Below are positions 1 to 52,847 of a DNA stretch of 64,000 bases, in pieces; the stretch's first letter is position 1, and every line of letters begins with the position of its first letter. Origin of the DNA: Prorocentrum cordatum. Taxonomy: Eukaryota. The stretch spans positions 1,364,001 through 1,428,000 of the forward strand of contig CAUYUJ010000225.1 of assembly GCA_963575745.1 (NCBI GenBank), read 5' to 3'. The notes below the pieces were generated by a model, which had not been told where the DNA came from, did no database searches, and saw only the letters and a list, made by a program, of their open reading frames with translations. Both the position numbers and the translations under genes were made by a program.

Positions 1-1
1 G

Positions 2-1027
2 CTGGCGAGGTTGATGGGGCGGATTCGGGTGGGGCTCTTTGGTGAGCGGGAGGAGGCGGGCGGCCGTCGCTAGTCCCTGCACTTCCTCCGGGAGGGTGCC
101 GCGCGCTACTGCTGCGGCCACTGTGGCCAGGGCACACGGAACGGACAGGTCAGTTTGGACGAGTTGGAAGTGCTCGTACCGCCACACGTCGGGCCCAGCT
201 GCGCTTCGATTTGGTGCGGCCCGCAAGGCTTTGGCGAAGTGTAGCTCGAACTGTTGCTGCTCGCCGTCCTGTTCGTCGTAGGCGGCTGGTGGCTGTGGCT
301 GATGGTGTGGGAAGAGCTGCGGTGCGGCTTGAAGGGTCAACTCGTCTCCAGCAATTTCGAATGCTTCGCGGAGGACTCTCGTCGCTTTGCCCACGGCGCC
401 TGCCTCCACGAGTTTGCGCGCCGTCATAACGTCGTGCTCTGCGGTAGTTTTCCGCCTGGCGCGCAAAGGAGGTGGGGCGGAGTCAAGGACGGCGCCCCAA
501 AGCTGCGCTTCGCGGTGCTCCCTGATCTCCGAGGCCCGGCGGAACAGCGCAGTGGTGAGCTGAGCGTTGCCTTTCTTGCCGCCTCGGAGGTTGGCGTGTC
601 CGAGCAGTAGCTTAGGGAGCATGAACCAACGCTTGGCCGCCTTGGTGATGGACTCCGGGGTGCCGCGGTGGATCTCGTGGGCGAAAACCTTCGTGTGCTC
701 CGTTATGATGGCGCCCACCACCCCGCGAGCGTGCGGCGGTATATGGGCGGCCGTGGGCACTGGTAATTGGACCATTTCTGGCGTCCCATTCGGCGTTGGC
801 GTCGTTGCTGGCGTGCCTGGCCGTGTCGAGTTGGAGCTGCGCGTCGGCTGGCGCAGGCGGCGCCGGCGCGGTGACGACGGCAGCCCATTTGTGTTCAACT
901 TCTCTTTTGAATACAAAAGGAAGGTCGTCGGCCACTTCCAGGGCAGCGTTGCTGGTCTGGGCGCAGACAAGAGCGCACTCCAAGCAGGCGACGGGGCTCT
1001 GCGGCGCAATGCTTGTGCGACAGCGGA
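2..1027 (-). mobile_element. Non-LTR retrotransposon (CRE-clade-like) reverse transcriptase ORF, N-terminal RT region; continues beyond the window's left edge
   Basis: Stop-free minus frame from 1027 to the edge, translated by hand: ...PTAAHIPPHAR...AAKRWFMLPKLLLG...RGGKKG...ARKLVEAGAVGKATRVL...RSAAGPDVWRYEHF...ARGTLPEEV...ARLLPLTK. A frameshift near 35-40 then gives SPTRIRPINLAS. These match RT domains 0-2 of CRE-type elements (GPDGWRYEHL; L.K..RPI). Confidence 0.85.
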
Positions 1028-2229
1028 TCACCTGCGGCGGTATGATGGAAGTGCACATCGCGCACGTAGCTGCTCTGCCTGTCCGGGGGAGCGTGGCGTA
1101 CCACGTCGCGGCGTCCTCTCGTGGCCGTCGCCGCGATCGTTGCCCGGCAGCGTCGCCTGGTAGGGCGCCAGGCACAGCGGCAGCTGCAGTGCCAGAGCGG
1201 GAGGTTTCGCCAGTTCGTTGCGCCCGAAACCGCCCGTGTCTTGCCTCGAGGGGCCCGTCGTCGGTTGGCGCATTCGTGTCCATATCGTCCGCTGTGGCGG
1301 CCGCGGCCGCGCCAGGGCCTTCCCCGGGGTACCCCAGCGTGCAGTCGAAGCCCAGCTCGCTCCACGTCGCGGCAATTGCAGCTGGCGCCATCCCGTAAGC
1401 TTGGTTCCTCCTGGCCAGCTTTTCGAGCTGCGTCCAAAAGTGGTGACGAGGAACCCGAGGCGTCGGGGCACTCAATGTCGCCGTGGCCAACGTCATCGTG
1501 TAGCTGGCGGCACCGACAGCAGATCCCGTTAGCGCAGCGGCCAGCAGGCAACTAACGAGCAGGACGATCGCGAGAGCGCGCTTCTTGCCATACTTCTGCA
1601 CGAGTCCGCACGCCTTGGAGGGCCTGGCCATGAGGCGCCGCCCGATCGTTAGTACGGCAAGCAGCAGGTCCACAGAGAGACAGGTGAGCACCGCAAGAGC
1701 GCACGTGAGATGGCCTGCGAGGCGCAGCATTGTGAGGGGGATTGGCAGCTGCCGAGTCGGCTCCGGCTGACATCTTGCACTCCCCCGATGGCCGGCGGCA
1801 TTCCATGCCGAGAGTGCCCAGAACAGCAAGGCCGCAAGTACCTGCGACCGTCCGCGGGCGTGCCAGAAGAGGCGCAACGCCCTCTCGGGGACGGTGTAGC
1901 AAGTTCCCCTGGTCCCACCAGTGATTGTGCTGCTGAACGTGGCGCTGCTGGTGTCCGTCGTGCTGGTCAATGTGGTGCCGCTAGTTGCAATGTTGCTGTG
2001 AAGCATGATGTTGCTGGTATTAGTCGTGCTCGTAATGCTTATCGTCGTGCTGGGCGTAGTGGTGTTGTTGGTACCAGTCGCACTCTGAACACTCGCGTTG
2101 CTGCTCTCACCGCTGCTGCTCGACGATGTGTTGGGCGTAGTGGTGTTGCTGGTACTGGGCTCGCTCGGAACACTCATGGTTATACTTGTACCCGTGCTGC
2201 TCGCCGACGTGCTGAGCGTAGTGGTGCTA
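612..2229 (-). CDS. Disrupted ORF: end of the Ser/Thr repeat, 2-3 hydrophobic helices, FDCTLGYPGEGP motif, Cys-rich finger; probably joins the RT frame through a frameshift near 780
   Basis: ORF 612..2177 contains VLAALLFWALSAW, LTCALAVLTCLSVDLLLAVLTI and ALAIVLLVSCLLAAALTG, the motif at 1314-1349, and CAMC...CLEC at 975-1103. After EWDA (~780) the protein-like sequence switches to the RT frame. Confidence 0.6.
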
Positions 2230-5200
2230 GGTGCTGCCGGTACCGGTCGTGCTCGTCACACTCGTGGTTCTGCTCTCCGTCGTACCGCTCGCCGCCGTGC
2301 TCGGCGTAGTGGTGCTGCTGAAGTCGGTCGTGCTCGTCACACTCGCGGTGCTGCTCTCGGTCGTACTGCTCACCGATGTGCGGGGCGTACCCGTGCTGCT
2401 GGTAACAGTCGTGCTCTTTACACTCGTGGTGCTGCTCTCGGTCGTACTGTTCGCCGACGCGCTGGGCGTGGCGGTGCTGCTGACCCCGATCGTGCTCGTC
2501 ACTGTCGTGGTGCTGCTTTTTGTCGAACTGCTCGCCGACGTGCTGGGCGTGGTGGTGCTGCTGGTCTCGGTCGTGATCGTCGTACTCGTGGCGCTGCTCT
2601 CAGTCGTACTGCTCGCCGACGTGCTCGGCGTAGTGGTGCTGCTGAAGTCGGTCGTGCTCGTCACACTCGCGGTGCTGCTCTCGGTCGTGCTGCTCACCGA
2701 TGTGCTGGGCGTACCCGTGCTGCTGGTACCAGTCGTGCTCTTTACACTCGTGGTGCTGCTCTCGGTCGTACTGCTCGCCGTCGTGCTGGGCGTAGCGGTG
2801 CTGCTCGTATCGGTCGAGCTGGTCATGTTCCTGGTGCTGCTCACGGTTGTACTGCTCGCCAACGTGGTGTGCGTAGTGGTGCTGCTGGTACGTCTCGTGT
2901 TCGTCCCACTCGTGGTGTTGCTCTCGGTCGTACTGCTCGCCGACGTGCTCGGCGTAGTGGTGCTGCTGGTCTCGGTCGTGCTCGTCATTCTCGTGGTGTT
3001 GCTCTCGGTCGTACTGTTCGCCGCTGTGATGGGCATAGTGGTGCTGCTGGTCTCGGTCGTGCTCGTTATCCTCGTGGTGCTGCTCTCGGTCGTACTGCTC
3101 GCCGACGTGCTGGGCGTAGTGATGCTGCTGGTACCGGTCGTGCTCCTCACCCCCGTAGTGCTGCTTTCAGTCGTTCTGCTCGCCGAGGTGCTGAGCGTAG
3201 TGGTGCTGCTGGTCTCGTTCGCGCTCGTGGCCCTGGTGGTGCTGCTCTCGGTCGTACTGCTCGCCGACGTGCTGGGCGTGGTGGCGCTGCTGGTCTCTGT
3301 CGTGCTCGTCACCCTCGTGGCGCTGCTCCCGGTCGCACTGCTCGCCGACGTGCTGGGCGTGGTGGTGCTGCTGGTCTCGGTCGTGCTCGGTACCCTCGTG
3401 ATGTTGCTCTCGGTCGTACTTCTCGCCGGCTTGCTGGACGTAGTGGTGCTGCTGGTCTCGGTCGTGCTCGGTACCCTCGTGGTGCTGCTCTCGGTCGTAC
3501 TGCTCGCCGCTGTGATGGGCATAGTGGTGCTGCTGGTCTCGGCCGTGCTCGTTACCCTCGCGGTGCTGCTTTCGGTCATACTGCTCGCCGACGTGCTGGG
3601 TGTAGTGATGCTGCTGGTCTCGGTCGTGCTGGTCATCCTCGTGGTGCTGCTCTCGGTCGTACTGCTCGACGACGCGCTGGGCGAGGCGGTGCTGCTGGTA
3701 CAGGTCGTGCTCTCCACACTCGTGGTGCTGCTCTCAGTCGTACTGCTCGCCGACGTGCTGGGCGTAGTGGTAATTGCCGGTGCCAGATATGCTCGCCCCA
3801 ATCGTGGTGCTGCTTTCGCTTGTTCTGCTCGCCGACGTGCTGGGCGTAGTGGTGCTGCTGTGCCCGTCGTGCTCGTCCCAGTGGTGCTACTTTCGGTTGT
3901 ACTGTTCGCCGACGTGCTGGGCGTAGTGGTGCTGATGATACTAGGCGTGCTCGTCACCCTCGTGGGTCTGCTCTCGGTCGTACTGCTCGCCGACGTGCTG
4001 AGCGTAGTGGCGCTGCTTGTCTCATTCGCGCTCGTGGCCCTCGTGGTGCTGCTCTCGGTCATACTGCTCGCCGACGTGCTGGGCGTGGTGGTGCTGTTCT
4101 CAGTCGTACTGCTCGCCGACGCACTGGGCGTGGCGGTGCTGGTGTCGGTCGTGCTCGTCACCCTCGTGGTGCTGCTCTCAGTCGTACTGCTCACCGACGT
4201 GCTGGGCGTAGTGGTGCTGCTGGTACCGGTCGTGCTCGACACCCTTGTGGTGCTGCTCTCGGTCGTACTTCTCGCCGACGCGCTGAGCGTGGTTGTGCTG
4301 CTGGTACGGGTCGTGCTCGTCACACTCGTGGTGCTTCTCTCGGTCGTACTGTTCGCCGACGCGCTGGGCGTGGCGGTGCTGCTGACCCCGGTCGTGCTCG
4401 TCACAGTCGTGGCGCTGCTTTTTGTCGTACTGCTCGCCGACGTGCTGGGCGTGGTGGTGCTGCTCGTCTCGGTCGTGATCGTCATTCTCGTGGCGCTGCT
4501 ATCAGTCGTACTGCTCGCCGACGTGCTGGGCGCAGTGGTACTGCTGGTGCCGCTCGTGCTCGTCACCCTCGTGGTGCTGCTCTCGGTCGTACTGCTGACC
4601 GACCCGCTGGACGGAGTGGCGCTGCTGGTCTCGGTCGTGCTCGTCACACTCGTGGTGCTTCTTTCGGTCGTACTGCTCGCCGACGTGCTGGGCGTAGTGG
4701 TGCTGCTGGTGCCGGTCGTGCTCGTCCCAATCGTGGTGCTGCTTTCGGTCGTACTGCTCGCCGACGCGCTGGGTGTAGTGGTGCTGCGGGTGGCGGTCGT
4801 GCTCGTCACCCGTGTGGTGCTGCTCTCGGTCGTACCGCTTGCCGACGTGCTGGGCGTAGTGATGCTGCTGGTCTCGGTCGTGCTGATCATGCTCGCGGCC
4901 CTGCTCTCGGTCGTATTGCTCGCCAACGTGCTGGGCGTAGTGGTGCTGCTGGTCTCGGTCGTGCTCGCCCCACTCGTGGTGCTGCTGCATTCTTTTATTC
5001 AACTCGCCGACGTGCTTGACGTCGTGGTGCTGCTGGTCTCGGTCGAGCTCGTCACACTCGTGGTGCTGCTCTCGTTCGTACTGCTCGCCGACACGCTGGG
5101 CGTGGTGGTGCTGCTGGTATCCGTTGTGCTCGCTACACTCGTGGTGCTGCCTTTGGTCGTACTGCTCGCGGACGTGCTGTGCGAAGTGATGTTGCTGGTC

Positions 5201-7403
5201 TCGGTCGTGCTCATCACCCTCGTGGTGCTGCTTTCGGTCGTACTGCTTGCCGACGTGCTGGGCGTAGTGGTGCTGCTGGTACCGGTCGTGCTCGTCACCC
5301 TCGTGGTGCTGCCCTCGGTCGTACTGCTCGCCGACGCGCTGGGCGTGGTGGTGCTGCTGGTCTCGGTCGTGCTCGTCACCCTCGTGGCGCTGCTCCCGGT
5401 CGCACTGCTCGCCGACGTGCTGGGCGTAGTGGCGCTGAGGGTCTCGGTCGTGCTCGTCACAGTCGTGGTGCTGCTTTCGGTCGTACTGCCCTCCGACGTG
5501 CTGGGCGTGGTAGTGCTGCTGATCTCGGTCGTGCTCGTCCCAATCGTGGTGCTGCTCTCGCTCATGCTGCTCGCCAACGCGCTGGGCTTAACGTTGCTTC
5601 TGGTACCTACCGTGCTGATTATACTCGCGACGCTGCTTTCGCTCGTACTGCTCGCCGACGTGCTGGGCGTAGTGGTGCTGCTGGTCTCGGTCGTGGTCGC
5701 CACCCTCGTGGTGCTGCTCTCGGTCGTACCGCTTGCCGACGTGCTGGGCGGAGTGGTGCTGCTGGTAGCGATCACTCTCGTCATACTCGTGGTGCTGCTC
5801 TCGGTCGTAGTGCTCTCCGACGTGCTGGGCGTAGTGTTGCCGCTGGTACTGGTTGTACTCGTCATACTCGTGGTGCTGCTCTCGGTCGTACTGTTATCCC
5901 TCGTGCTGGGCGTGGTGGTGCTGCTGGTATCCGTCGTACTCGTCATACTCGTGGTGCTGCTCTCGCTTGTATTACTCTCCGATGTGCTGGGCGCAGGGGT
6001 GCTGCTGGTGGCGTTCGTACTCGTGATTCTCGTGGTGCTGCTCTCGATCGTACTGTTCGCCGACGTGGTGGGCGTAAGGGTGCCGCTGGTACTGGTCGTA
6101 CCCGTCTTACTCGTGGTGCTGCTTTCAGTCGTAGTACTCTCCAACGTGCTTGGCGATATGATGCTGCTGGTTCGGGTCGTACTCGTCATACTCGTGGTGC
6201 TGCTCTCGGTCGTACTGCTTTCCGACGTGCTTCGCGTAGTGGTGCCGCTGGACAGGTCTTACTCGTCACACTTGTGGTGCTGCTCTCGGTCGTGCTGCTC
6301 GCCACAGCGCTGGACGTAATGGTGCCGCTGGTACTGGTCTTACTCGTCATACTTGTGGTGTTGTTCTCAGTCGTATTGCTCGCCGACGTGCTGGGCGTAG
6401 TGGTGACGCTGGTACCGGTCGTACTCGTCATACTCGTGGTGCTGCTCTCGGTTGTACTGCTCGTCGACGTGCTGGGCCTAGTGGTGTCGCTGGTACTGGT
6501 CGCACTCGTCATACTCGAGTTGCTGCTCTCGCTCGTACTGCTCACCGACGTGCCGGACGTAGTGGTGCCGCTGGTAATGGTCGCACTTGTCATACTCGTG
6601 GTGCTACTCTCGGTCGGACTGCTCACCGACGTGCTGGGCGTAGTGGTGCCGCTGGTACAGGTCGCACTTGTCATACTCGTGGTGCTGCTCTTGGGCGGAC
6701 TGCTCTCCGACGTGCTGGGCGTAGTGGTGCCGCTGGTACCGGTGGCAATCGTCATACTCATGGTGCTGCTCTCGGTCGTAAAGCTCACCGACGCGCTGGG
6801 CATAGTGGTGCCGCTGGTACAGGTCTCACTCGTCATACTCGTGGTGCTGCTCTCTATCGTACTGCCCTCCGACGTGCTGGGCGTAGTGGTACCGTTGATA
6901 CTGGTCGCACTCGTCATACTCGTGGTGCTGGTCTCGGTCGTACTGCTCCCCGACGTGCTGGGCGTAGTGGTGCCGCTGGTACCGGTGGCACTCGTCATAC
7001 TCGTGGTGCTGCTCTCGGTCGTACTGCTATCCGACACGCTGGGCATAGTGGTGCCGCTGGTACAGGTCTCACTCGTCATACTTGTGGTGCTGCTCTCAGG
7101 GGTACTGCCCTCCGACGTGCTGGGCGTAGTGATGCCGCTGGTGCCTGTCGCACTCGCCATACTCTTAATGCTGCTCTCGGTCGTCCTACTTTCCGACGTG
7201 CTGGGCGCCGTGGTGTCGCTGGTACCGGTCGCTGTCGTCATACTCGTGGTGCTGTTCTCGGTCGTAATATTCGCCGACGTGCTGGGCATAGTGGTGCCGC
7301 TGATACCGGTCGCTCTCGTCATACTCGTGGTGTTGCGTTCGGTCGTACTGTTCTCCGACGTGCTGTGCGTAGTGGCGCCGCTGGTACCGGTCGCACTCGT
7401 CAT
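1930..7403 (-). pseudogene. Mucin-like Ser/Thr-rich coding tandem repeat, 81-bp/27-aa unit (about 67 copies), interrupted
   Basis: Unit is TTESSTTRVTSTTETSSTTTPSTSASS; ORFs 6186..7469, 4999..6189 and 2227..4926. Lesions: 1-nt loss near 6251, in-frame TGA at 4999-5001, compensating frameshifts near 3775 and 3858, 7-nt insertion with a stop near 2229. Confidence 0.75.
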
Positions 7404-8569
7404 CCTCCTCCTCCTCCTCCCTCTCCTCCTCCCTCCTCTTCCTCCCTCCCTCTCCTCCTCCCTCCGCACTCGTCATACCTGGTACCGGTCTCATCCTCCT
7501 CCTCCTCCCTCTCCTCCTCCTCCCTCCTCTTTCTTCTCCTCCTCCTCCTCGTCCTCAGGCTCTCCTTCTCATCTGCTTCATTATGCTTCCTTCTCCTCCT
7601 CCCGACTCCCCCCCATCCCTCCTATTCCTCTTCTTCCCAGCTCCTCGCGACTATCCTCGGGTGACGGCGTCGAGGTGGACGAAGATTTGATTTTGATAGA
7701 CGCTCCAGTGCTGAACGAACGCGCCCCTGCTCCAGTCGGCGCATTGCCCCAAAACGAACTGGACAGAGTGCAGAAGCTAAGGCAAATATTGGCCGGGAAG
7801 GTTTTCCCGAGTCATCACCCAGTTTCCATGGGTCCCACCTGTTGCACAATGAACGACACCGCGCACTGCGCAATGGTGCCGACGAGTTGCACTAAGGATG
7901 CGCGGGAGGGCGAGGACTATGCAGAAAACTGGTGAGGATGGGAATGGCGATGAGGTGGAGCTGGATCAGCAAGAGGACGCGAGCCTGGGGGCCCGGAGCA
8001 GGCAGACTTGCAGGGAGTTAGGCAGGTATCCTCTCCAGAACCTACCACCGCTCCTCTGAAGGGCCCAGGGCTCTTCCCCGACCCCCATCCCGGAAGTCCC
8101 CATCCCCCTCTCCACGTCCTCCTCCTTCGTCCTCCTCCATCCTGCTACCCCGAGTCGCAGTCTTCCTCCTTGCCCCCCTGATCCTCCTCTTCCTCTTCCT
8201 CCTCCTTCTCACCCTGCTCTTCCTCCTTTACTCTTGCACCCCAATCCTGCCATCCATGAGCCCGACGAGCGCTTCAATGCTTACGCACACCTGATCCACA
8301 CACCTTTCAGGTATCCTACATGCTACGCACAGTCGAGCTTGATTTGAGAGGACACGCGAGGAAGAAGCAAGACCCTTCCAGGGGCCACAATGCCGTAGGA
8401 ATCCAGAGGCATGGGTGGCTACAATAACAGGACGCAAAGATGTCCTTGATCTGGCAGTGTCGGCCTACAAATCAAACTCGACTGTACCTTTGCAGCCTCT
8501 GCTCCAATACCGTATTGAATCCGCTTCACCTCCAGGAGCTATAAACTCCGACCCCCGAATTCCAAAGTT

Positions 8570-8790
8570 CTGAGGCTTCTAGGAGGCCTTCTACGAGGCA
8601 TAATGAGCGGCCTTCTAGAAGGACTATTCAGCGGTCTTCTGGGAGCGTATCAAGCGGCCTTCTAGGAGGCCTATTCAGCGGCCTTCCAGATAGCCTATTC
8701 AGCGGCCTTCTGGCTGATTCAGTGGCATTCTAGGAGACCTTCTAAGAAGCTGTTTAAGAAGCTTTGAGAGACCTTCTAAGAGGCCTGATG
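8570..8790. repeat. Degenerate ~24-bp tandem repeat (gcggccttctaggaggcctattca-like)
   Basis: Recurring gcggccttct/cttctag motifs. Confidence 0.7.
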
Positions 8791-9144
8791 AGATGCTTTC
8801 TAAGAGCCCTCATTCCGAAGGTGCTTCTTTTTCTCAGCCTTCTCCCCCTCCTCATGTCTCTGCTTCCTCCTCGGTCCTCAGCCGCCTGCCCCTGATTCCT
8901 CAGGCTCCTCCACATTCCTCTGACTCCTCCTCATTCCTCAGCCCTTTCTTCAATCCTCAGCCCTTTCCTCATTATTGTGTTTGTTCCTCATTTTTCCGCC
9001 TCCTCATTCCTCAGCCCCCTCCTCATTTCACAAGTTCCTCATCATTCCCCAGCACCCGCACTCTACTGCCTTCTCATTCCTCGGCCTCCTCAACCCTCAG
9101 CCCCTTCGCATTCCTCAGCCTTATCCTAATTCTTCAGCGTCCGA

Positions 9145-9480
9145 CCAGCTTCGCCTGAGACATCCTCGCAATTGTGGGCTGACCTGAGGTGGTCCAACCA
9201 GTTTCGCCAGAAGCATCCTCGCAACTATGGGTCCAGAGATCCCGTGCGAAGAGGTCGTCAGGCCAGTTCCGCCTGAGACATCCTCACAACTCAGGGTTCA
9301 AAGATGCTGCGCGTGAGGTGGTCCAGCCAGTTTTGCCTCACATGTCCTCGTAACGCTGCGCTCAGAGATGCCCTGACCTGAATTGGTTTGGCCACTTTCG
9401 CCTGCGACATCCTTTTATATTTTCAGCTCGAGGATGTCCCATCTCCTGAGCTATCCTCGCAACTCTAGGTTCAAGCTGCC
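9145..9480 (+). repeat. Dispersed repeat cluster with core ttcgcctgagacatcctcgcaact
   Basis: Several copies here; the same core recurs at 32795-33310 and 59150-59390. Confidence 0.75.
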
Positions 9481-10874
9481 CTGACCCAAGGATGAACAGG
9501 CAGAGGATTCGGAGGGAGTAATGGGGGGAAATGTTGCGAATGGTGCTGACGCCTGACCGCTGGCCACATCCTTGGTTGGGATAAAATCTCTCCCCCTATG
9601 ATTCACAGGGAAGAAGTCTCTCCCGGCCATGTCTCAGGATTTCAAGATTGCGCCTTAGTTGCACTCTAGATGCGCGCTACGAAGGCCGCGCGGCCTGGGC
9701 GAGGGACGCGGGCGGATCGCGGATTGCGCGCGCGAGTCTCGCCCGCCCGCGCGCGCAAACGCCCGCGCGCGCCCGCCCGCCGCCCGCTTGCGCGACCGCC
9801 CGCCCCCTCGCCCGCCCGCGCCCGCGCCCGCCCGCTGGGCCGCTGGCACCCCCGTTGCATACCGACGCAGCTCGCCGATGCATGTCGGAGGAATGCGCAG
9901 CAATGCGATGCAACTCGAAGGGACACAAAGCGACTCGAATGAGACGCGGCCAGGGCTCTGGACGGAGAGCAGTCGGGAGTGCCGAACGGGCGTTTCACGC
10001 GCGGCCCTCGAATCGAAAGCTGAGTTGCTTGCCTCTCTGTTGGGGTGGCTCCGAACGCCCGCCTGGCCGGGGCCAAGCTGATCCGCGCCAGGATCCATGG
10101 CCATGTCGACGGCGGACTCTCTGGGCTGACAGCCCGGGCAGACATGTTCTGGATTCCTCGCTCGTGTCGGGGCCGCGCTCTTTGCGGCGTCGTCATCGAA
10201 AGTCCAGCAGTACTGCGTGCACTCGGCGTTCCAACTCCTGCATGACTGCCTGATGACTTGTCGCGTGCATGCGTTATCGCATGCTTGCGCGTTGACGTCG
10301 GAGTGGTTCTCTCGCCGTCAGCTGGCCACCGCGTTGTTTTATGCTTTGAATGTGGTTTTGGGTGATATGTGTCTGGACGCAAAAGTCGGATGGCTAGTCA
10401 CAGACGTTCCACAGCCCCATCCATGGCGCGCTACCCTCCCAGGCGTGTTTAGCACACACACACACACACTCCCGAATTTGTCTGCAGGGATTGCCGCTTG
10501 CAGATTGACGGAGTGATCCCTGCTACCCGAGGGAGTGTTCCGATTTACCTCTTGGATTCGGCCTCCGAGCTGGGGTCGCAACACGAAAAAATGCTACTCT
10601 GGCGAAGAACCAACCCATTCTACACGCGTGAAGGTATCAACAAGACCACTCGCTGCACAAGAACTCTTTGAGGGGGGTCGCAATTCCCCTGAAAAATTCG
10701 CCAGAGAAAATCGAACCCGGCTCAGCATGCAGTCAGGCGACTCAATTCACACGCGGATGTTAGCTGTGCATGCGGCGCGGAACACGAGAGCGGGGACTGT
10801 GGGAGCAGGAGGAGGGATCATGGGCAACCTCACCTTTGAGCCAAATCGCGTCGCGGATCACGCGCCATGCTCGT

Positions 10875-11335
10875 GGGGGGTGCGCCAGGAGGGACCCGAA
10901 TCACCATGCGGACGCAGCCACTGGGGCCTTCTGGGGAGCTCCCTATGAGGCCACGAAGCGTGCGAGGGTTGTGCCAAAAGGGACCCGAGTCACCATGCGG
11001 ACGCAGCCTCTGGGGCCTTCGGTGGGGCTCCCTATGGGGCCGCGAAACCTTTGAGGGGTGTGTCAAAAGGGGCCCGAGACACCAAGCGGACGCAACCACT
11101 GGGGCCTTCGGCGGGGCTTCCTACGGAGCCACGACACGTGTGAGGGGTGTGCCAGAAGGGACCCGAGACACCAAGCGGACGCAGCCACTGGGGCCTTCGG
11201 CGGGGCTTCCTACGGGGCCACGAAACGCGTGAGGGGTGCGGCCGAAAGGGCCCGAGTCACCGTGCGGACGCAGCCACTGGAGCCTCTGGTGGAGCTCCCT
11301 ATGGGGCCACGAAACGCGTGAGGGGTACGCCGAAA
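10875..11335 (+). repeat. 89-bp minisatellite, about 5 copies
   Basis: cggacgca at 10909, 10998, 11087, 11176 and 11265 (exact 89-bp spacing). Confidence 0.95.
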
Positions 11336-11491
11336 CGGTGATGAGAATCGTGATGGTGGTGGCGATGGTGATGGTGATGCTGATGGTGGTGGTGATGACG
11401 ATGGTGGTGATGATGATGATGATGATGAAGAAAATGAAGATGAAGATGAAGATGAAAATGAAGATGAAGATGAAGATGAAGATGAAGATGC

Positions 11492-11528
<37 letters not shown>

Positions 11529-11538
11529 AATAATGATA

Positions 11539-11586
<48 letters not shown>

Positions 11587-11622
11587 ATGGTGATGATGAT
11601 GATGATGCTGATGGTGATGGTG

Positions 11623-11654
<32 letters not shown>

Positions 11655-11686
11655 ACTGATACTGATACTGATACTGATACTGATAC

Positions 11687-11733
<47 letters not shown>

Positions 11734-11757
11734 CCGATGATGATGGTGATGGTGATA
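11336..11757. repeat. (GAT)n compound microsatellite
   Basis: Direct reading. Confidence 0.95.
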
Positions 11758-46775: not shown

Positions 46776-48165
46776 TTTGAGAGCGTGACCGGCCGGCCGG
46801 CCGGCGCGCGGAGATGTTTTTCGAACGCAGGCTCACGTTGACGGCTTCGTTTTTGAGAGCGTGACCGGCCGGCCGGCCGGCGCGCGGAGATGTTTTTCGA
46901 ACGTAGGCGTCGCGCGTCCCCCCGCGCGGCGCAGCGCTATGCGCCGTGGCTGTCCTAAGCGGGCGTCGGCGTGTACCTCGCGGCGGTTGGGGCCGTGTGG
47001 GGCGTCTTGGAGGCCTCTTCGGCCGTCTTGTGACGAACTGGGGCATATTAGAGCGATCTGTGGGCGTCTTGGAAGGCTTCTGGGGCCGGTCGGACCAGCT
47101 TGGCGGTAATTTCAAGCATTCTCGGGGTTGTCTTGAGCCCGTCCGGGGGGGTGGCGAATTAGGTGACGCCCATCCGGGGGGGGGGGGTCCCTTATCATTT
47201 GATAGGGAAAAGGAATATGTATATATATATACACACATATACATATATACACACATACACAACAAGACTGCAGTGGCGCTTCGCACCATGCACCTCGGTC
47301 TTTGAAGTTTGGTATGCAGGCGGAATGGCAGGAAGGTCAAACCGACAATTTAGCGATAACTCCTTGTTGACTTTGCCAGCATCACCGTTATAGTAGTGTA
47401 ATTCGTTATCCTTCCTCCATGCTTCTCTTTCCTCATTCTCGCCATACCCTGCGCATTCTCCCTATCTTTCTCAGCTCTTTTTGCGGAGGCTCCTCCTTGG
47501 AGAGTCTTTAGGAGCCTCACAAAAGTTGTTCAGGCTTTCTCAAGGCCTTCTGGAGGCCTCCTGGGCGTGTTCTGGGGGCCTCTGGAGGCGCTCTCGGGTC
47601 ACCCTGCCTCCAACCGCGGTCTCCCTGAACGACCAGGTTACGATTTGGAATGCTTCGGAGGGTGTCTTGGGGCCATCTTGAGCTGCCATGGGGCTCTCTC
47701 AGGGCCATCTTGGACCCCTGTTGTGCCGTTTTGGGGCTCTCTTGGACTGCCTGGAAACTCTTTTCGGATGGTTGTGGGACGATGTTGGAGCTTCCCAGGC
47801 GGCTTCGGATGCCCAGAAAACCGCCGTCTTGGAGCGTCGGGAAGCCGAGAAGAGAACCCCGAAATTCACCAAGAAACCGCAGAAAATCAATGAGTTGTGC
47901 CTCTTGGGGCCTTCTTGGGAGTGCTCTTGGAGGCCTCTTGGGACGTTTCGGAGCGATCTTTGGGGGTATGACCGCTTCTTGGAGGTCATCGTGGACCGTA
48001 TTGGGGCTCTCTGGGGTCGTTTCGGGAGCGCGCCGAAGGCCTGAAACCCGTATAGGGCCGTCTTCGGGCTCTCGTGAGGTTCTCCGGGGTCGTCTGAAGG
48101 GTTGCCCAGAGGACCGGGGAGGGCCAAATTCGTTCGGGGGGGCGCTTTTTCCAGCGTCCCCGGCC

Positions 48166-48166
<1 letters not shown>

Positions 48167-48215
<49 letters not shown>

Positions 48216-48418
48216 CAGAGAGAGAGAGAGAGAGAAATATGAATGGGAATACACATTCATGCATACATACATACATACATACATACATACATACATACAT
48301 ACATCCATAGACACATACATATATGCATGCATACATGCAAACATACATACATTCATACATGCATGCATACAGCTACATATACATATGCATGCACATGTAC
48401 ATTTACAGTTCCACATAC

Positions 48419-48449
<31 letters not shown>

Positions 48450-51435
48450 CATACATCCATACATACATCCATACATACACACACATACACATGCACATGC
48501 ACATACACATACACATACACCTATACATCTACATCTACATATACATCTACATCTACATATACATGTACACACATACACACATATATACATGCATGCATAC
48601 ATACATACATACATGCATACGTACACCGTATTACATGCATACATACCTGCCTGTCTGCCTACATACATACATACATACATGCGTAAAGTTACACACATAC
48701 ATACATACATACATACATACATACATACATACATACATACACACACACATACATACATACATACATACATACATACATACATGCATACATACATACATAC
48801 ATACATACGTGCATACCTGCATGCATGCATGCATATATACATACACGCATACAACAGTTACATACACATGCCCGTAACTACATACATAGTTACATGCATG
48901 CATACACTCATGCAACCATGCATACGCCCATACACACACTCATACTTTCCTACATACATACATACATACATACATACATACAAACAAACACACATGCATA
49001 CATACATACATACATGCAGTACATACATACACACATACATTTCTATACATACATACATTCATGTAAATACATATTCATACAACTTTTCATACATACACAC
49101 GTATACAAACATACACACATACCTGCATCCATACATACATATATTCATCTATACACATGGACAAATGCACACACATCTGCATAACATGTAAACTGTGTGT
49201 ATGGCCATATGTCGTCTTATGCAGCGCCCTCTCTGTATCCGCCACCGTGCCTGCTGCACGTACAGGCGTGGAAGAATGCCAAGCGCTGCCTGACAGGCCC
49301 TCTGTAGTCATCTAAGGGACTTCCCCATCCTCCCGATCACACCCAGCCAACTACCACACCCCTACTCCCAGCGGGTTCCTGGGCGGCCATGGAGCCTCCC
49401 TGAAGCTCTCCAAGGCTTCCATGACGGCCCAGGAGACCCCCACGACGGTCCAAGAGGGCCCCGAGTCGCCGAACGATCGCTCGAAGACGCCCAAGATGGC
49501 CCCACGATGGCCCAAGAGGCCTCCAAGAGGGTCCCAAGAAGCAACAGCCATTGATTGTCCGTCAATGGTTGGAAGATGTCAACGTCTTCGCCTTCTCTGC
49601 TTTCCGACGTTCCAAGACGGCCCAAGAGGCCCACAAAACCACACCAACACTCTCGAAGATGCCTCCAAGAGGACCCTGAGACGGCCTCAGAGCGCCCCAA
49701 GACGGTCCAAGAAGCGCCCACGACGGGGCCCCAAGACGGCCCCGTAAAGGGACCTAAGAGAATACACGCGAACTGAAAATGCTAGCCATCCGCCCCAAGA
49801 AGCCCCCAGGAGGACCCAGAGGCGCCCAAGAGGCCCCAACAAGTCTCCAAGTGGCCCTCCAGAGGCCCCAAGAGGCGCCAGACGTCCCAAAAGAGGCGCC
49901 AAGAGGCCCCCAAACTACTCCCAAGAGGCATCAACACTGCCTCCAGGAGGCCTCCGAGAGGCCTCCGAGCGGCCTCCCACGAGACCCCAACGAACATCCA
50001 ATAAACTTATAACCCGCAACCCAAGCTCGGTGGCGGGATTTGCCGTAGGACGCTGTATGTATGTATTTATGCGTGGATATATACATGCATGCATGCATGT
50101 CTGTCTGTCTGTCTGCTGTCTGTCTGTCGGTCTGTCTGTCTATCTGTCTGTCTGTCTGTCTGTCTGTCGGTATGTGTGTATGTGTATGTATGTATGTATG
50201 TATATATGTGTATATATATATATATGTGATATTACATGTATGTGTGTATGAATTTAGGTATGCGTGTATGTAGGTATGTCTATGTGTGTGGATGTGTGTA
50301 TGGATGCATGCATGCATGCATGTACGTGTGTGTATGGTTGTATGTATGTATGTATGCATGCATGCATGTATCTACGTATGTGCACGCATACATGCATGCA
50401 TACATGGTTGTGTGTATGCGTGTATGTATGCATGCATATATGTATGTATGTATGTGTGTATGTGTATATGACTGCATGCATGTATGTATGTATGTATATG
50501 TACATATGAGTGTACGCATGTATGGATGGTTGTATGTGTGTGCATGCATGTGCGTGAATGCATGTATGTATGTAGGCATGTAGTTAAGCACGTATGTATG
50601 TATATGATTGTACACACATACATATGTACATATATATATATATATATATGTATACGTGTATGAGCCTGCACAGACAGACACGCCTATATGCACGCACACA
50701 TATATACATACATGCAACCGTACCTACCTACATACATGCATACACACATGCATGCATACACACATACATGCATGCACACATACACACGCATACATACATA
50801 CATACATACACACATACATACATGCATACATACATACACACATACATGCATGCGTGCATGCATGCATACATACAGACATGCATATATACATATATACATG
50901 CATGCATGCATGCATGCATGTACACAAACATACATACACACATGCACACACATACATACATACATACATACATACATACATACATACATACATACAAACA
51001 TACATACATACATACATGCATACATACATACATACATACATATATACATACACACATGCATTCACATACAGTACATTACATTACATTACATTACATTACA
51101 TTACATTACATTACATGACATTATATACATACATACATACATACATACATACATACATACATACATACATACATACATGCATGCATGCATACATACATAC
51201 ATACATACATACACATATACATACATACATTACATTACATTACAATACATTACATTACATCACATCACATTACATTACATACATACACACACGTGAATAC
51301 ATGCATACATGCATGCATGCATACATACATTCCATACATACATGCATACACACATACATAAAATTATGCATACATGAATCCATCCATCCATCCATCCATC
51401 CATCCATCCATCCATCCATCCAGACAGACAGACAG

Positions 51436-51465
<30 letters not shown>
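48167..51465. repeat. (CATA)n / (TATG)n AT-rich microsatellite fields (48167-49190, 50055-50610, 50610-51465)
   Basis: Direct reading. Confidence 0.95.
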
Positions 51466-51467
<2 letters not shown>

Positions 51468-52847
51468 CTGCATTTGCGTAGGAATGATCAGACATCGTGT
51501 TTTGGTACGATCCAGGATCGTCCAGACGCAACAACCGGGTTGCTTTGTGGCGTTGGAGTCCTTCCGAATGGTGTTTTTGCACGCTTCAGGATCTTCAAAC
51601 AGTTGTCTCCCAGATGGGCACTTCCCTCAGTGGAAATGAACCCCTGTGAGGGCCTATGGAGACGGAGCTTGGGAGAGTTGATTCCAATATCGTTGATGAG
51701 TCATGGGTTTACACTGGTCCCCATCCTCCTCCTTCTCCACCTCCTCCTCCTCCGCCTTCTCCTTCTCCTCCTCCTCCTGCTCCTGCTCCTCCTCCTCCTC
51801 CTCCTCCTCCTCCTCCTCCTCCTCCTCCTCCTGGTATCCTCCCCCTCCTCCTCCTCCTCTCCTCCTCCTCCTCCTCCTCCTCCTCCTCCTCCTCCTCCTC
51901 CTCCTCCTCCTCCTCCTCCTCCTCCCCCTCTCCTTCTCCTCCTCCTCCTCCTCCTCCTCCTGCTCCTCCTCCTCCTCCTCCTCCTCCTCCTCCTCCGCCT
52001 CCTCCTCCTCCTCCTCCTTCTCTCCCATATCACCACTTCCCCTCTCTCTACAGCCACTGATGATCCTCCCTGTGCTCATCCGCCCAGATGGCCTCCAAAC
52101 CGAAGTGACTTCGTCGCCGAACCCTGGAGGGCGCGCGCCGCCATCTCCACCCAAGGGGACCCAAAATCCTTCGGGCCGGCCGATGGGCAAAATTTCGCAC
52201 TACTCGCGCGACAGGGATGCTTCCCAGAGATCCAACGCATTGAAAGAATCAAGACGAAGGTTTTTCGCAATTTTCGGCCTCTTGGGGCCCTCGCCGGGCC
52301 CCGGGACCATCAAAAAACGATTCAGGATGAAAAGTTGGTCCTGGGGAACTGGGCGAGACTTCCAGGGACTCGGTGTCGAAAAAAACACAACATCGGATCT
52401 CTGGGTTGCTGGGGCAAACTTCAACGCGCCCACCTGCCCCCGATTCAATGTCGGTGGGCATCGCCAGCCAGGCGCAGGAGTTCGGCCAGTGGGCAAATCG
52501 GCACCTCCTGGCGCAGCCCGCCAATGTTTCAATTGGGGGCGCTGGGGGGGGGTCACCTTGTTTGGTTGCAACGGCGTGGAGCCACGCCGCGGTCGGAGGC
52601 ACCCGATGGGCACCACAGGGCCCAGCTGGGCGGTCAGGAACGGGACGACCGCTGACGGGGGGAGAGCAACGGGAGGATGAGGGCAAACATGTTTCCGATT
52701 CGTGGCAGCTTTCACTGCACATCACCCCTCGGGGGCTGTCCTCGTTCGAGCCACGGGCCACGGGGTGCTCTCGCGCAAATCAGCACAAGAGGTACAGCCC
52801 CGCAGAGCTGGGGCGCCAGGTTGCGGCCGTTGGCCGTGCCGCTCTGC

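Follow-up and report, generated by a model that had tools for sequence, protein, structure and literature searches.

A candidate in-frame leader of Ser/Thr repeats and membrane-type helices in an R2-like retrotransposon of Prorocentrum cordatum

Long interspersed nuclear elements (LINEs), the retrotransposons without long terminal repeats (LTRs), are thought to need an RNA-binding protein and a reverse transcriptase (RT)-nuclease only. To our knowledge, a membrane link of LINEs is hardly known apart from the esterase-type first open reading frame (ORF1) of some clades. A locus of the dinoflagellate Prorocentrum cordatum raises the question of whether a LINE can also encode membrane-type segments ahead of its enzyme part. 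The locus lies at the start of a stretch of 64,000 nucleotides, referred to here as the window (assembly GCA_963575745.1, contig CAUYUJ010000225.1, positions 1,364,001 to 1,428,000), which is GC-rich (0.55-0.67) over most of its length. On the minus strand, positions 1-7556 lead from a Ser/Thr-rich tandem array through degenerate repeats, three predicted hydrophobic helices, the motif FDCTLGYPGEGP (termed GEGP below) and a Cys finger into a conserved region that precedes the RT (Table 1). The first RT motif is cut by the window start, and the RT body and 3' end lie beyond the window. With a probability of roughly 55%, we read positions 1-7556 as the 5' two thirds or more of a single decayed copy from a subfamily of R2-like non-LTR retrotransposons, which would carry the Ser/Thr array and membrane-type helices in frame ahead of the finger.

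The first-pass annotation of this DNA had placed all of these parts on the minus strand and had seen small lesions between them in place of any non-coding spacer. Both observations hold. Tandem-repeat calls, the list of open reading frames (ORFs) and direct reading of the sequence locate every part on the minus strand, and one frame (frame d) is open from 2255 to 612 over 547 codons, such that the parts are joined without a stop-rich spacer. A second frame, 1027-2, contains the conserved pre-RT region and a third one the motif TRIRPINLAS. Six small lesions were located along the element.

The lesions were assessed with the help of nine public runs that contain parts of positions 1-2400, four of which (X1, X2, X4 and X9) were compared with positions 1-2300 at 85% likeness. 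The contigs of X1, X2 and X4, from three studies, are about 96% identical to the window and jointly cover positions 1-2300. At nearly all of the listed differences they share the same letters, at full depth, and they represent one main sequence. A single 1859-bp contig of X1 (record 4) spans 368-2214 with 68 differences, running from the pre-RT region through the finger, the GEGP motif and the helices into the array. Records 9, 13 and 14 of X2 cover 1-1170, 1296-1761 and 1817-2252, respectively, and records 17-20 of X4 cover 1-542, 733-1436, 1414-1694 and 1757-2094.

The main sequence has none of the three lesions that break the frame within positions 1-2300. The 11 bases behind 784 are present in X1, X2 and X4 and in a loose end of X9; read by hand, they turn ...NAEW/PEMVQL... 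into the single frame ...EWADAITPEMVQLPV..., which fits the relative P0006. The additional GT behind 2229 occurs in two X1 contigs and one X2 contig, where the TAG gives way to ...STTSTTTLS... and the Ser/Thr and helix frames are joined (likewise read by hand). When the base at 38 is left out, the frame reads LTKSPTRIRPINLAS, exactly as in P0001, and both P0001 and P0061 read through ...KSPTRIRPINLAS. Because the three breaks are absent, the main sequence has an intact frame from the array through to the RT. The linkage of array, helices, finger and pre-RT region recurs in other samples, and in the main sequence of the family their frame is unbroken. The copy in the window is considered decayed, because its lesions are private relative to the main sequence, from which it differs by about 4%. 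P0059, a public protein model of 142 residues that is 94% identical to the window, contains the main-sequence residues at positions 935, 913 and 911 (compared by hand).

The type of the element was approached through its pre-RT region. The 342-residue frame yielded 47 matches with HMMER among 1.8 billion representatives, the close ones being fragments (P0001, 86% identical; P0002, 67%). A word-index search added P0061, a Prorocentrum cordatum protein which at 83% identity is the nearest named relative. Since both P0001 and P0061 run on into an RT, an RT is expected to follow the pre-RT region here; the window itself contains the first motif alone. RVT_1 was detected in nine of 14 relatives scanned (seven above the Pfam cut-off). 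The long, more distant relatives (P0006, P0016/P0052, P0022, P0030 and P0047) contain an N-terminal Cys finger, the same pre-RT region and a C-terminal CCHC motif with PDL, DVTV and K..Y, and the motifs C..C..H..C, RH, PDL, DVTV and K..Y align in these five. A C-terminal CCHC motif together with a PD-(D/E)xK restriction-like endonuclease is the motif set that defines this R2-like group. When a profile of six long relatives was compared with solved proteins, the best matches were R2 proteins (E 1e-34; L1 ORF2, 3e-15), and a weak third stretch of the profile fell on the R2 nuclease region (conditional E 1.6e-4). Because of the layout of the relatives and the profile match to R2 proteins, the element is probably an R2-like LINE of the restriction-like-endonuclease type, with the nuclease motifs taken from the relatives.

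Searches for other affiliations gave no matches. No apurinic/apyrimidinic endonuclease (APE) was detected upstream of the RT, as no Pfam family matched the 547- and 342-residue frames; the Cys finger occupies that place instead. Pfam likewise gave no match on the four window frames of the element, and the ESM Atlas no usable one for the pre-RT frame (best 0.89, unnamed). The first-pass annotation had called the RT CRE-like. Members of the CRE clade (CRE1/2, SLACS, CZAR) insert into spliced-leader RNA genes. The dinoflagellate spliced-leader motif had no match in the window with up to 3 mismatches, the 3' junction of the element being outside the window; membership of the CRE clade is neither supported nor contradicted by the window. 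A search of positions 1-10000 against Rfam with E up to 1 had no match, and thus no ribozyme of a known family. A side observation concerns the metagenome protein P0003, in which a Mur-ligase middle domain (residues 59-204) directly precedes a segment (208-302) of 95 residues that is 46% identical to the pre-RT region; this may be a host gene hit by an element or a chimeric model.

Upstream of the pre-RT region, of the 387-residue piece that comprises leader and finger, only residues 279-353 (the finger region) match the profile of the relatives. A low-complexity linker connects the GEGP motif with the finger, and the helix region encodes two clean hydrophobic segments of 20-28 residues. An AlphaFold model of the piece, computed from the single sequence and used for helix positions alone (mean predicted local distance difference test score 48.7), places its low-confidence helices on the same segments. 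GC content at codon positions 1, 2 and 3 is 0.64/0.58/0.73 in the helix region, 0.64/0.54/0.74 in the finger and 0.73/0.49/0.73 in the pre-RT region, and the skew in the helix region has a chi-square P of about 0.02. The whole unique part of the leader, 1930-1290, is open in the ORF frame, with codon-position GC matching that of the finger and pre-RT region. The open frame, the GC pattern, the hydrophobic segments and the predicted helices speak for translation of this unique part.

No homologue of the helix region was found outside this family in the searches that follow. None of the 57 relatives and cluster members reaches a 19-residue hydropathy mean of at least 1.9, whereas the window (2.42) and P0060 (2.07), which is 82% identical in protein to the window over helix 2, do. 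A query of helices, GEGP motif and finger had no match in the 300-958 residue range of the proteins searched; in the 30-211 residue range, P0059 and P0060 were its only matches. The 387-residue piece had no related loci in metagenome or viral contigs, and the ESM Atlas no usable match for the helix region. As judged from these comparisons of sequence, the leader is a novelty of this subfamily, and relatives outside it are without it. Copies that start at the GEGP motif or the helices and have no array, which the first-pass annotation had named as the contrary outcome, were not met among the close relatives; the distant ones do begin just before the Cys finger.

The 81-bp array was called by Tandem Repeats Finder (TRF) in two rows, 2230-4096 (23.1 copies, score 2293) and 4088-7407 (41.0 copies, score 3772). 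Its consensus unit translates as SMTSTTGTSSTTTPSTSASSTTESSTT, and two unit subtypes occupy 7406-6353 and 6192-2343. The consensus unit is free of stops in five of its six frames, and an open frame through the array is therefore weak evidence when taken alone. Downstream, the array decays into degenerate repeats, and the first 65 codons of these have a Ser/Thr fraction of 0.615, compared to a mean of 0.53 under a null of substitutions alone (P = 0.028). Within the repeat part, only these degenerate repeats give a hint of kept Ser/Thr coding. At the 5' edge, the Ser/Thr frame opens after a stop at 7475-7473 with its first Met inside unit 1; the (GGA)n-type simple repeat there includes a stray piece of an array unit at about 7490-7465.

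Several minor observations relate to the array and its surroundings. The odd unit at 4975-5058, 84 bp long, has an in-frame TGA and a unique insert (about 19 nt) that includes AATAAA. Repeats of the (GGA)n type flank the 5' edge at 7403-7660 and 8070-8260, where a microsatellite target or a rearranged junction is possible. Further tandem arrays occur just upstream, at 8585-8711 (24-bp x5), 9185-9338 (65-bp x2.4), 10873-11326 (89-bp x5) and 11364-11756 ((GATGAT)n x65). Twelve metagenome loci that matched a 20-base word of the array were dismissed as chance, having one match each and no array.

Is the linked unit a single locus, or does it belong to a family? Distinct versions comprise the window, the main sequence, P0061, P0001, P0002, P0059 and, over helix 2, P0060; a second X1 variant (record 2) has 44 differences in 305 bases at a depth of 3.65, compared to 51 for the main sequence. 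Many X9 contigs fall below 90% likeness, with about 86% DNA identity over 1381-1552 in the helix region, for which the window, the main sequence, P0060 and the X9 contigs thus provide separate versions. Both P0059 and P0060 are labelled CCMP1952 in EukProt. The window contains no second copy along its 64 kb, only low-complexity matches.

Read depth also bears on this point. In X1, the depth is 48-69 over 1-308, 29.3 over 309-2002 and 22.6 plus 11.3 on the junction unit 2187-2300, which fits a family with some 5'-shortened members. No loose end falls between 300 and 1900 among those listed for X1, X2 and X4. A depth of 29 in a run of 547 million letters, and of 6 in a marine metagenome of 192 million letters, is far above single-copy cover if these are DNA runs; the P. 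cordatum genome is given as about 4.15 Gb in an excerpt of PMC10449503. Whether it reflects copy number or transcription, the high depth favours a live, intact unit. In X1 and X4, the array is 36-90 times as deep as the unique part, about what is expected of one 65-unit array per copy. Run X9, guessed to be an RNA run, behaves differently: its depth spikes to 12039 (1387-1463) and 7844 (1926-2002) over surroundings of about 200-500, and its array is covered less deeply than the unique part, whereas the reverse holds for X1, X2 and X4.

Two explanations would assign the leader to the host. In one of them, a host gene encoding a membrane protein with Ser/Thr repeats was hit once by an R2-like LINE, in its 3' end or just after it; the contigs would then be the same locus in related strains, and their depth would be high by transcription or because the runs are non-genomic. 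The leader is indeed unmatched in any RT relative, the kinds of runs are guesses, and X1, X2 and X4 share one sequence and hence provide one further version of the array-helix junction. We nevertheless consider a single fusion improbable, given the intact frame across all three junctions of the main sequence and the X1 contigs, which have neither a break nor a listed loose end between helices and finger and an even depth from the pre-RT region to the array junction. Diverged helix versions (P0060 and X9) also argue against it. So does the outcome of the protein search, where the helix region had no host paralogue at 300-958 residues and matched P0059 and P0060 alone at 30-211. In the other explanation, the array-helix gene is a multi-copy host target which the element always enters at the same site, as R2 does in ribosomal DNA. 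R2-like elements with restriction-like endonucleases are typically site-specific and co-transcribed with their target (in part after PMC4640811), and a (GGA)n simple repeat borders the array. Empty targets would cause a branch in the assembly, yet X1 record 4 is unbranched through 368-2214, the depth upstream of the finger is no higher than inside the element, and the ratio of array to unique depth agrees with about one 65-unit array per copy. An insertion of this kind thus seems very improbable.

A further alternative accepts the element as one unit and moves the start of its protein. Here the array and helix region form an untranslated, repeated 5' region, consisting of promoter or 5' untranslated region (UTR) monomers of the kind found in mouse L1. 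Translation would start at the Met of 1283-1281, and the sequence upstream would be open simply because it is GC-rich and poor in stops. Some of the observations are readily accommodated in this manner: five of six unit frames are open, the array is without codon constraint, the other two frames in 612-1980 are also open for 105-218 codons, and neither a signal peptide nor a clear start was seen upstream of the array. The public gene model of the 94%-identical copy starts at Met 1283, and in relatives the protein begins 12 to about 130 residues ahead of the finger. On the other side stand the 640 unique bases from the array to the Met, which are open in the ORF frame of the main sequence and share the codon-position GC of finger and pre-RT region (in the helix region, P about 0.02). 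Their translation contains two clean hydrophobic segments, each 20-28 residues long, with eight Lys/Arg in the loop between them, and the degenerate repeats keep their Ser/Thr content above the null. We regard an untranslated leader as unlikely, although it deserves more than passing attention.

Several of these findings, and others, weigh against a translated leader in a mobile element. Five of six unit frames being open, in-frame continuity through the array had a prior chance of about 2 in 3. The array has no codon-position signal in the 58 units compared (diversity 0.184, 0.200 and 0.211 at codon positions 1-3), and its ratio of nonsynonymous to synonymous polymorphism (pN/pS), 0.79 in the Ser/Thr frame, is within the range of 0.6-1.06 of the other frames. 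The minus strand of 7400-8600 contains no Met followed by a hydrophobic leader (signal peptide) and no upstream start, where an upstream exon or a 5' truncation may account for a lost signal peptide. Both the start of the gene model at Met 1283 and the short leaders of the Met-start relatives belong here too. With three helices, the RT would come to lie on the lumenal side according to the positive-inside rule, and the topology of the helices is ambiguous. Differences between window and main sequence, counted by hand at the 22 listed sites in 39-784, fall 6/9/7 on the three codon positions; this is as expected for neutral decay of the window copy, and no sign of selection on the leader can be drawn from it. 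The join of array and helices is seen in the window copy and the single main sequence only, possibly the same locus in two strains. The kinds of runs were guessed ("DNA?"), and depth might reflect expression rather than copy number.

The first-pass annotation had also proposed either that the element co-encodes a heavily glycosylated, envelope-like membrane protein or that it is fused in frame with a host surface-protein gene. As regards co-encoding of the Ser/Thr and membrane part, the first of these proposals gains from the linkage and the frame, with contigs from three runs in which the lesions are absent. The label of an envelope-like glycoprotein is, by contrast, unsupported: no signal peptide was found, the array is without codon-level constraint, the topology is ambiguous and the GEGP motif fails as a 2A peptide. 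Ser/Thr/Pro-rich tandem repeats and membrane-anchor-type segments are both present as features of composition only. Pfam, protein and ESM Atlas searches found no relative in any envelope or mucin family, and no fusion peptide, coiled coil or envelope homology was found in the leader.

The GEGP motif was considered as a 2A (StopGo) peptide and ruled out. In excerpts of PMC4981915 and PMC12338488, class A peptides are defined by a C-terminal D[V/I]ExNPGP, class B peptides by a Trp at about -16 and P[N/H]PGP, and all by PGP. The motif of the window, in its context ATWSELGFDCTLGYPGEGP, reads PGEGP without PGP, and its Trp is at -17. Its counterpart in P0052, ...WRAWQIAHRLGEASNPGP, lies about 30 residues before the finger of that protein. 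As an observation in its own right, residues ~37-58 of P0052 combine NPGP with upstream Trp residues before the Cys finger of an R2-like LINE ORF.

Under the reading that we favour, the leader of the subfamily would be made up of the tandem array of Ser/Thr-rich units (27 codons each), followed by a module of three hydrophobic helices, two of them strong and one weak, that includes a very basic loop, and by the low-complexity linker with GEGP. It would travel with the element within its RNA and be translated as an N-terminal extension. The helices might anchor the protein, or a processed leader, at an internal membrane such as the endoplasmic reticulum or the nuclear envelope, and the Ser/Thr array would serve as a disordered spacer rather than a secreted mucin, as no signal peptide was found. 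A bolder version, in which separation at the GEGP site, by something other than the known 2A reaction, releases the membrane-anchored mucin-like protein of the LINE from its RT, and that protein, a non-LTR counterpart of an envelope or membrane-targeting gene product, docks the particle on the dinoflagellate nuclear envelope or even lets the element pass between cells, is highly speculative and in our opinion most improbable.

How does this layout compare with known systems? Like R2, R4, NeSL, CRE/SLACS/CZAR and Utopia, the element would have a single long ORF with an N-terminal Cys finger, a LINE-type RT and no APE upstream, and CCHC and PDL...DVTV...K are present in its relatives. Unlike R2-type elements, it has a leader of more than 1,900 codons before the finger, composed of the 27-codon Ser/Thr array and hydrophobic helices. 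Mouse L1 has tandem 5' monomers outside its coding frame. A short-unit tandem array at the 5' end of a LINE is common to both, whereas the 27-codon units described here are in frame with the ORF in the main sequence and are followed by a protein-like hydrophobic module, with no stop or spacer before the RT frame; the array would be translated in this case.

Other comparisons concern membranes and leaders. Excerpts of PMC5408684 (citing Kapitonov and Jurka 2003 and Schneider et al. 2013) implicate the esterase-type ORF1 of CR1, L2 and RTEX LINEs in membrane or lipid association. Both are LINE-encoded N-terminal or upstream modules with a proposed membrane link; as far as those excerpts describe it, the esterase of those APE-type elements folds as an enzyme and has an ORF1 to itself, whereas the helices share one frame with the RT of an R2-like element and have no esterase match. 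Peptides of the 2A type occur near the start of LINE ORFs (excerpts of PMC3708506 and PMC4981915); in PMC3708506, again in part, the published 2A-bearing LINEs (L1Tc, Ingi and animal elements) are APE-type, and class B 2A peptides are reported from dinoflagellates (PMC12338488, excerpt). What the window has in common with such cases is a short motif with a terminal G-P, placed after an N-terminal leader and ahead of the enzyme part of the ORF; NPGP is present at the matching place in P0052, and the motif of the window is distinguished by PGEGP in place of PGP. In LTR elements that carry an envelope, such as the errantiviruses, a separate env gene has a signal peptide and fusion machinery, according to excerpts of PMC13524379 and PMC5408684. 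Like these, the element would encode a membrane-type segment beside its replication enzymes, here deduced from the letters of the DNA; in contrast to the elements so described, no signal peptide, fusion peptide, coiled coil or env homology was found in it. Among excerpts of the literature on non-LTR elements and membrane modules, no LINE with its own membrane-spanning or mucin-like module was found.

If the leader is translated, R2-like elements can take up large in-frame N-terminal cargo, and the leader offers a handle on how retroelement particles reach the permanently closed nucleus of dinoflagellates. If it is untranslated, a codon-phased 5' array of such length remains unusual for a LINE, and arrays of this kind break dinoflagellate assemblies and gene models.

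Table 1. Features of the element in the window. Positions are those of the window; remarks on helices refer to hydropathy and to the AlphaFold model.
Feature	Positions	Strand	Remark
First RT motif, TRIRPINLAS	1..30	-	Cut by window start
Lesion: one extra base in A run	38..40	-	Absent in all four runs compared
Conserved pre-RT region	39..784	-	Homology to relatives from about residue 64-90 of its frame
Lesion: frame break	784..785	-	Contigs have 11 extra bases; site flanked by short direct repeats in the window
Cys finger, C-x2-C ... C ... C-x2-C-x3-C	963..1064	-	Colinear with N-terminal finger of P0006, residues 24-91, BLASTP E 4e-4
In-frame ATG (MDTNAPTDD)	1281..1283	-	72 residues before Cys finger
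FDCTLGYPGEGP motif	1314..1349	-	Where relative P0052 has NPGP (2A-like)
Predicted strong hydrophobic helix 3	1509..1571	-	Kyte-Doolittle mean 2.36; AlphaFold helix 121-158
Basic loop between helices 2 and 3	1572..1643	-	8 Lys/Arg in 25 residues
Predicted strong hydrophobic helix 2	1644..1727	-	19-residue Kyte-Doolittle mean up to 2.42; AlphaFold helix 71-107
Predicted weak hydrophobic helix 1, SQVLAALLFWALSAWNAAG, basic stretch before it	1791..1847	-	AlphaFold helix, residues 33-52, low confidence
Degenerate Ser/Thr repeats	1931..2229	-	About 75% identical to unit; array decays into them
Lesion: frame break with TAG, array versus downstream frame	2227..2230	-	Contigs have GT added (plus strand) behind 2229
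81-bp (27-codon) Ser/Thr-rich array	2230..7407	-	65 units placed in register
Lesion: compensated -4/+1 indel pair, unit spacings 77 and 82	3801..3883	-	About 25 codons out of Ser/Thr frame
Lesion: in-frame TGA	4999..5001	-	Inside odd 84-bp unit
Lesion: 1-base loss near 6273, unit spacing 80 not 81	6192..6353	-	At border of unit subtypes
Purine-rich (GGA)n-type simple repeat at array 5' edge	7403..7556	-	TRF period 3, 48.7 copies

In the rest of the window, the 16 longest stop-to-stop frames of 7400-64000 (325-598 codons) had no Pfam match at E up to 0.001. The region 48001-52000 forms an island of low GC content, 0.42-0.47, compared to about 0.55-0.67 elsewhere in the window.

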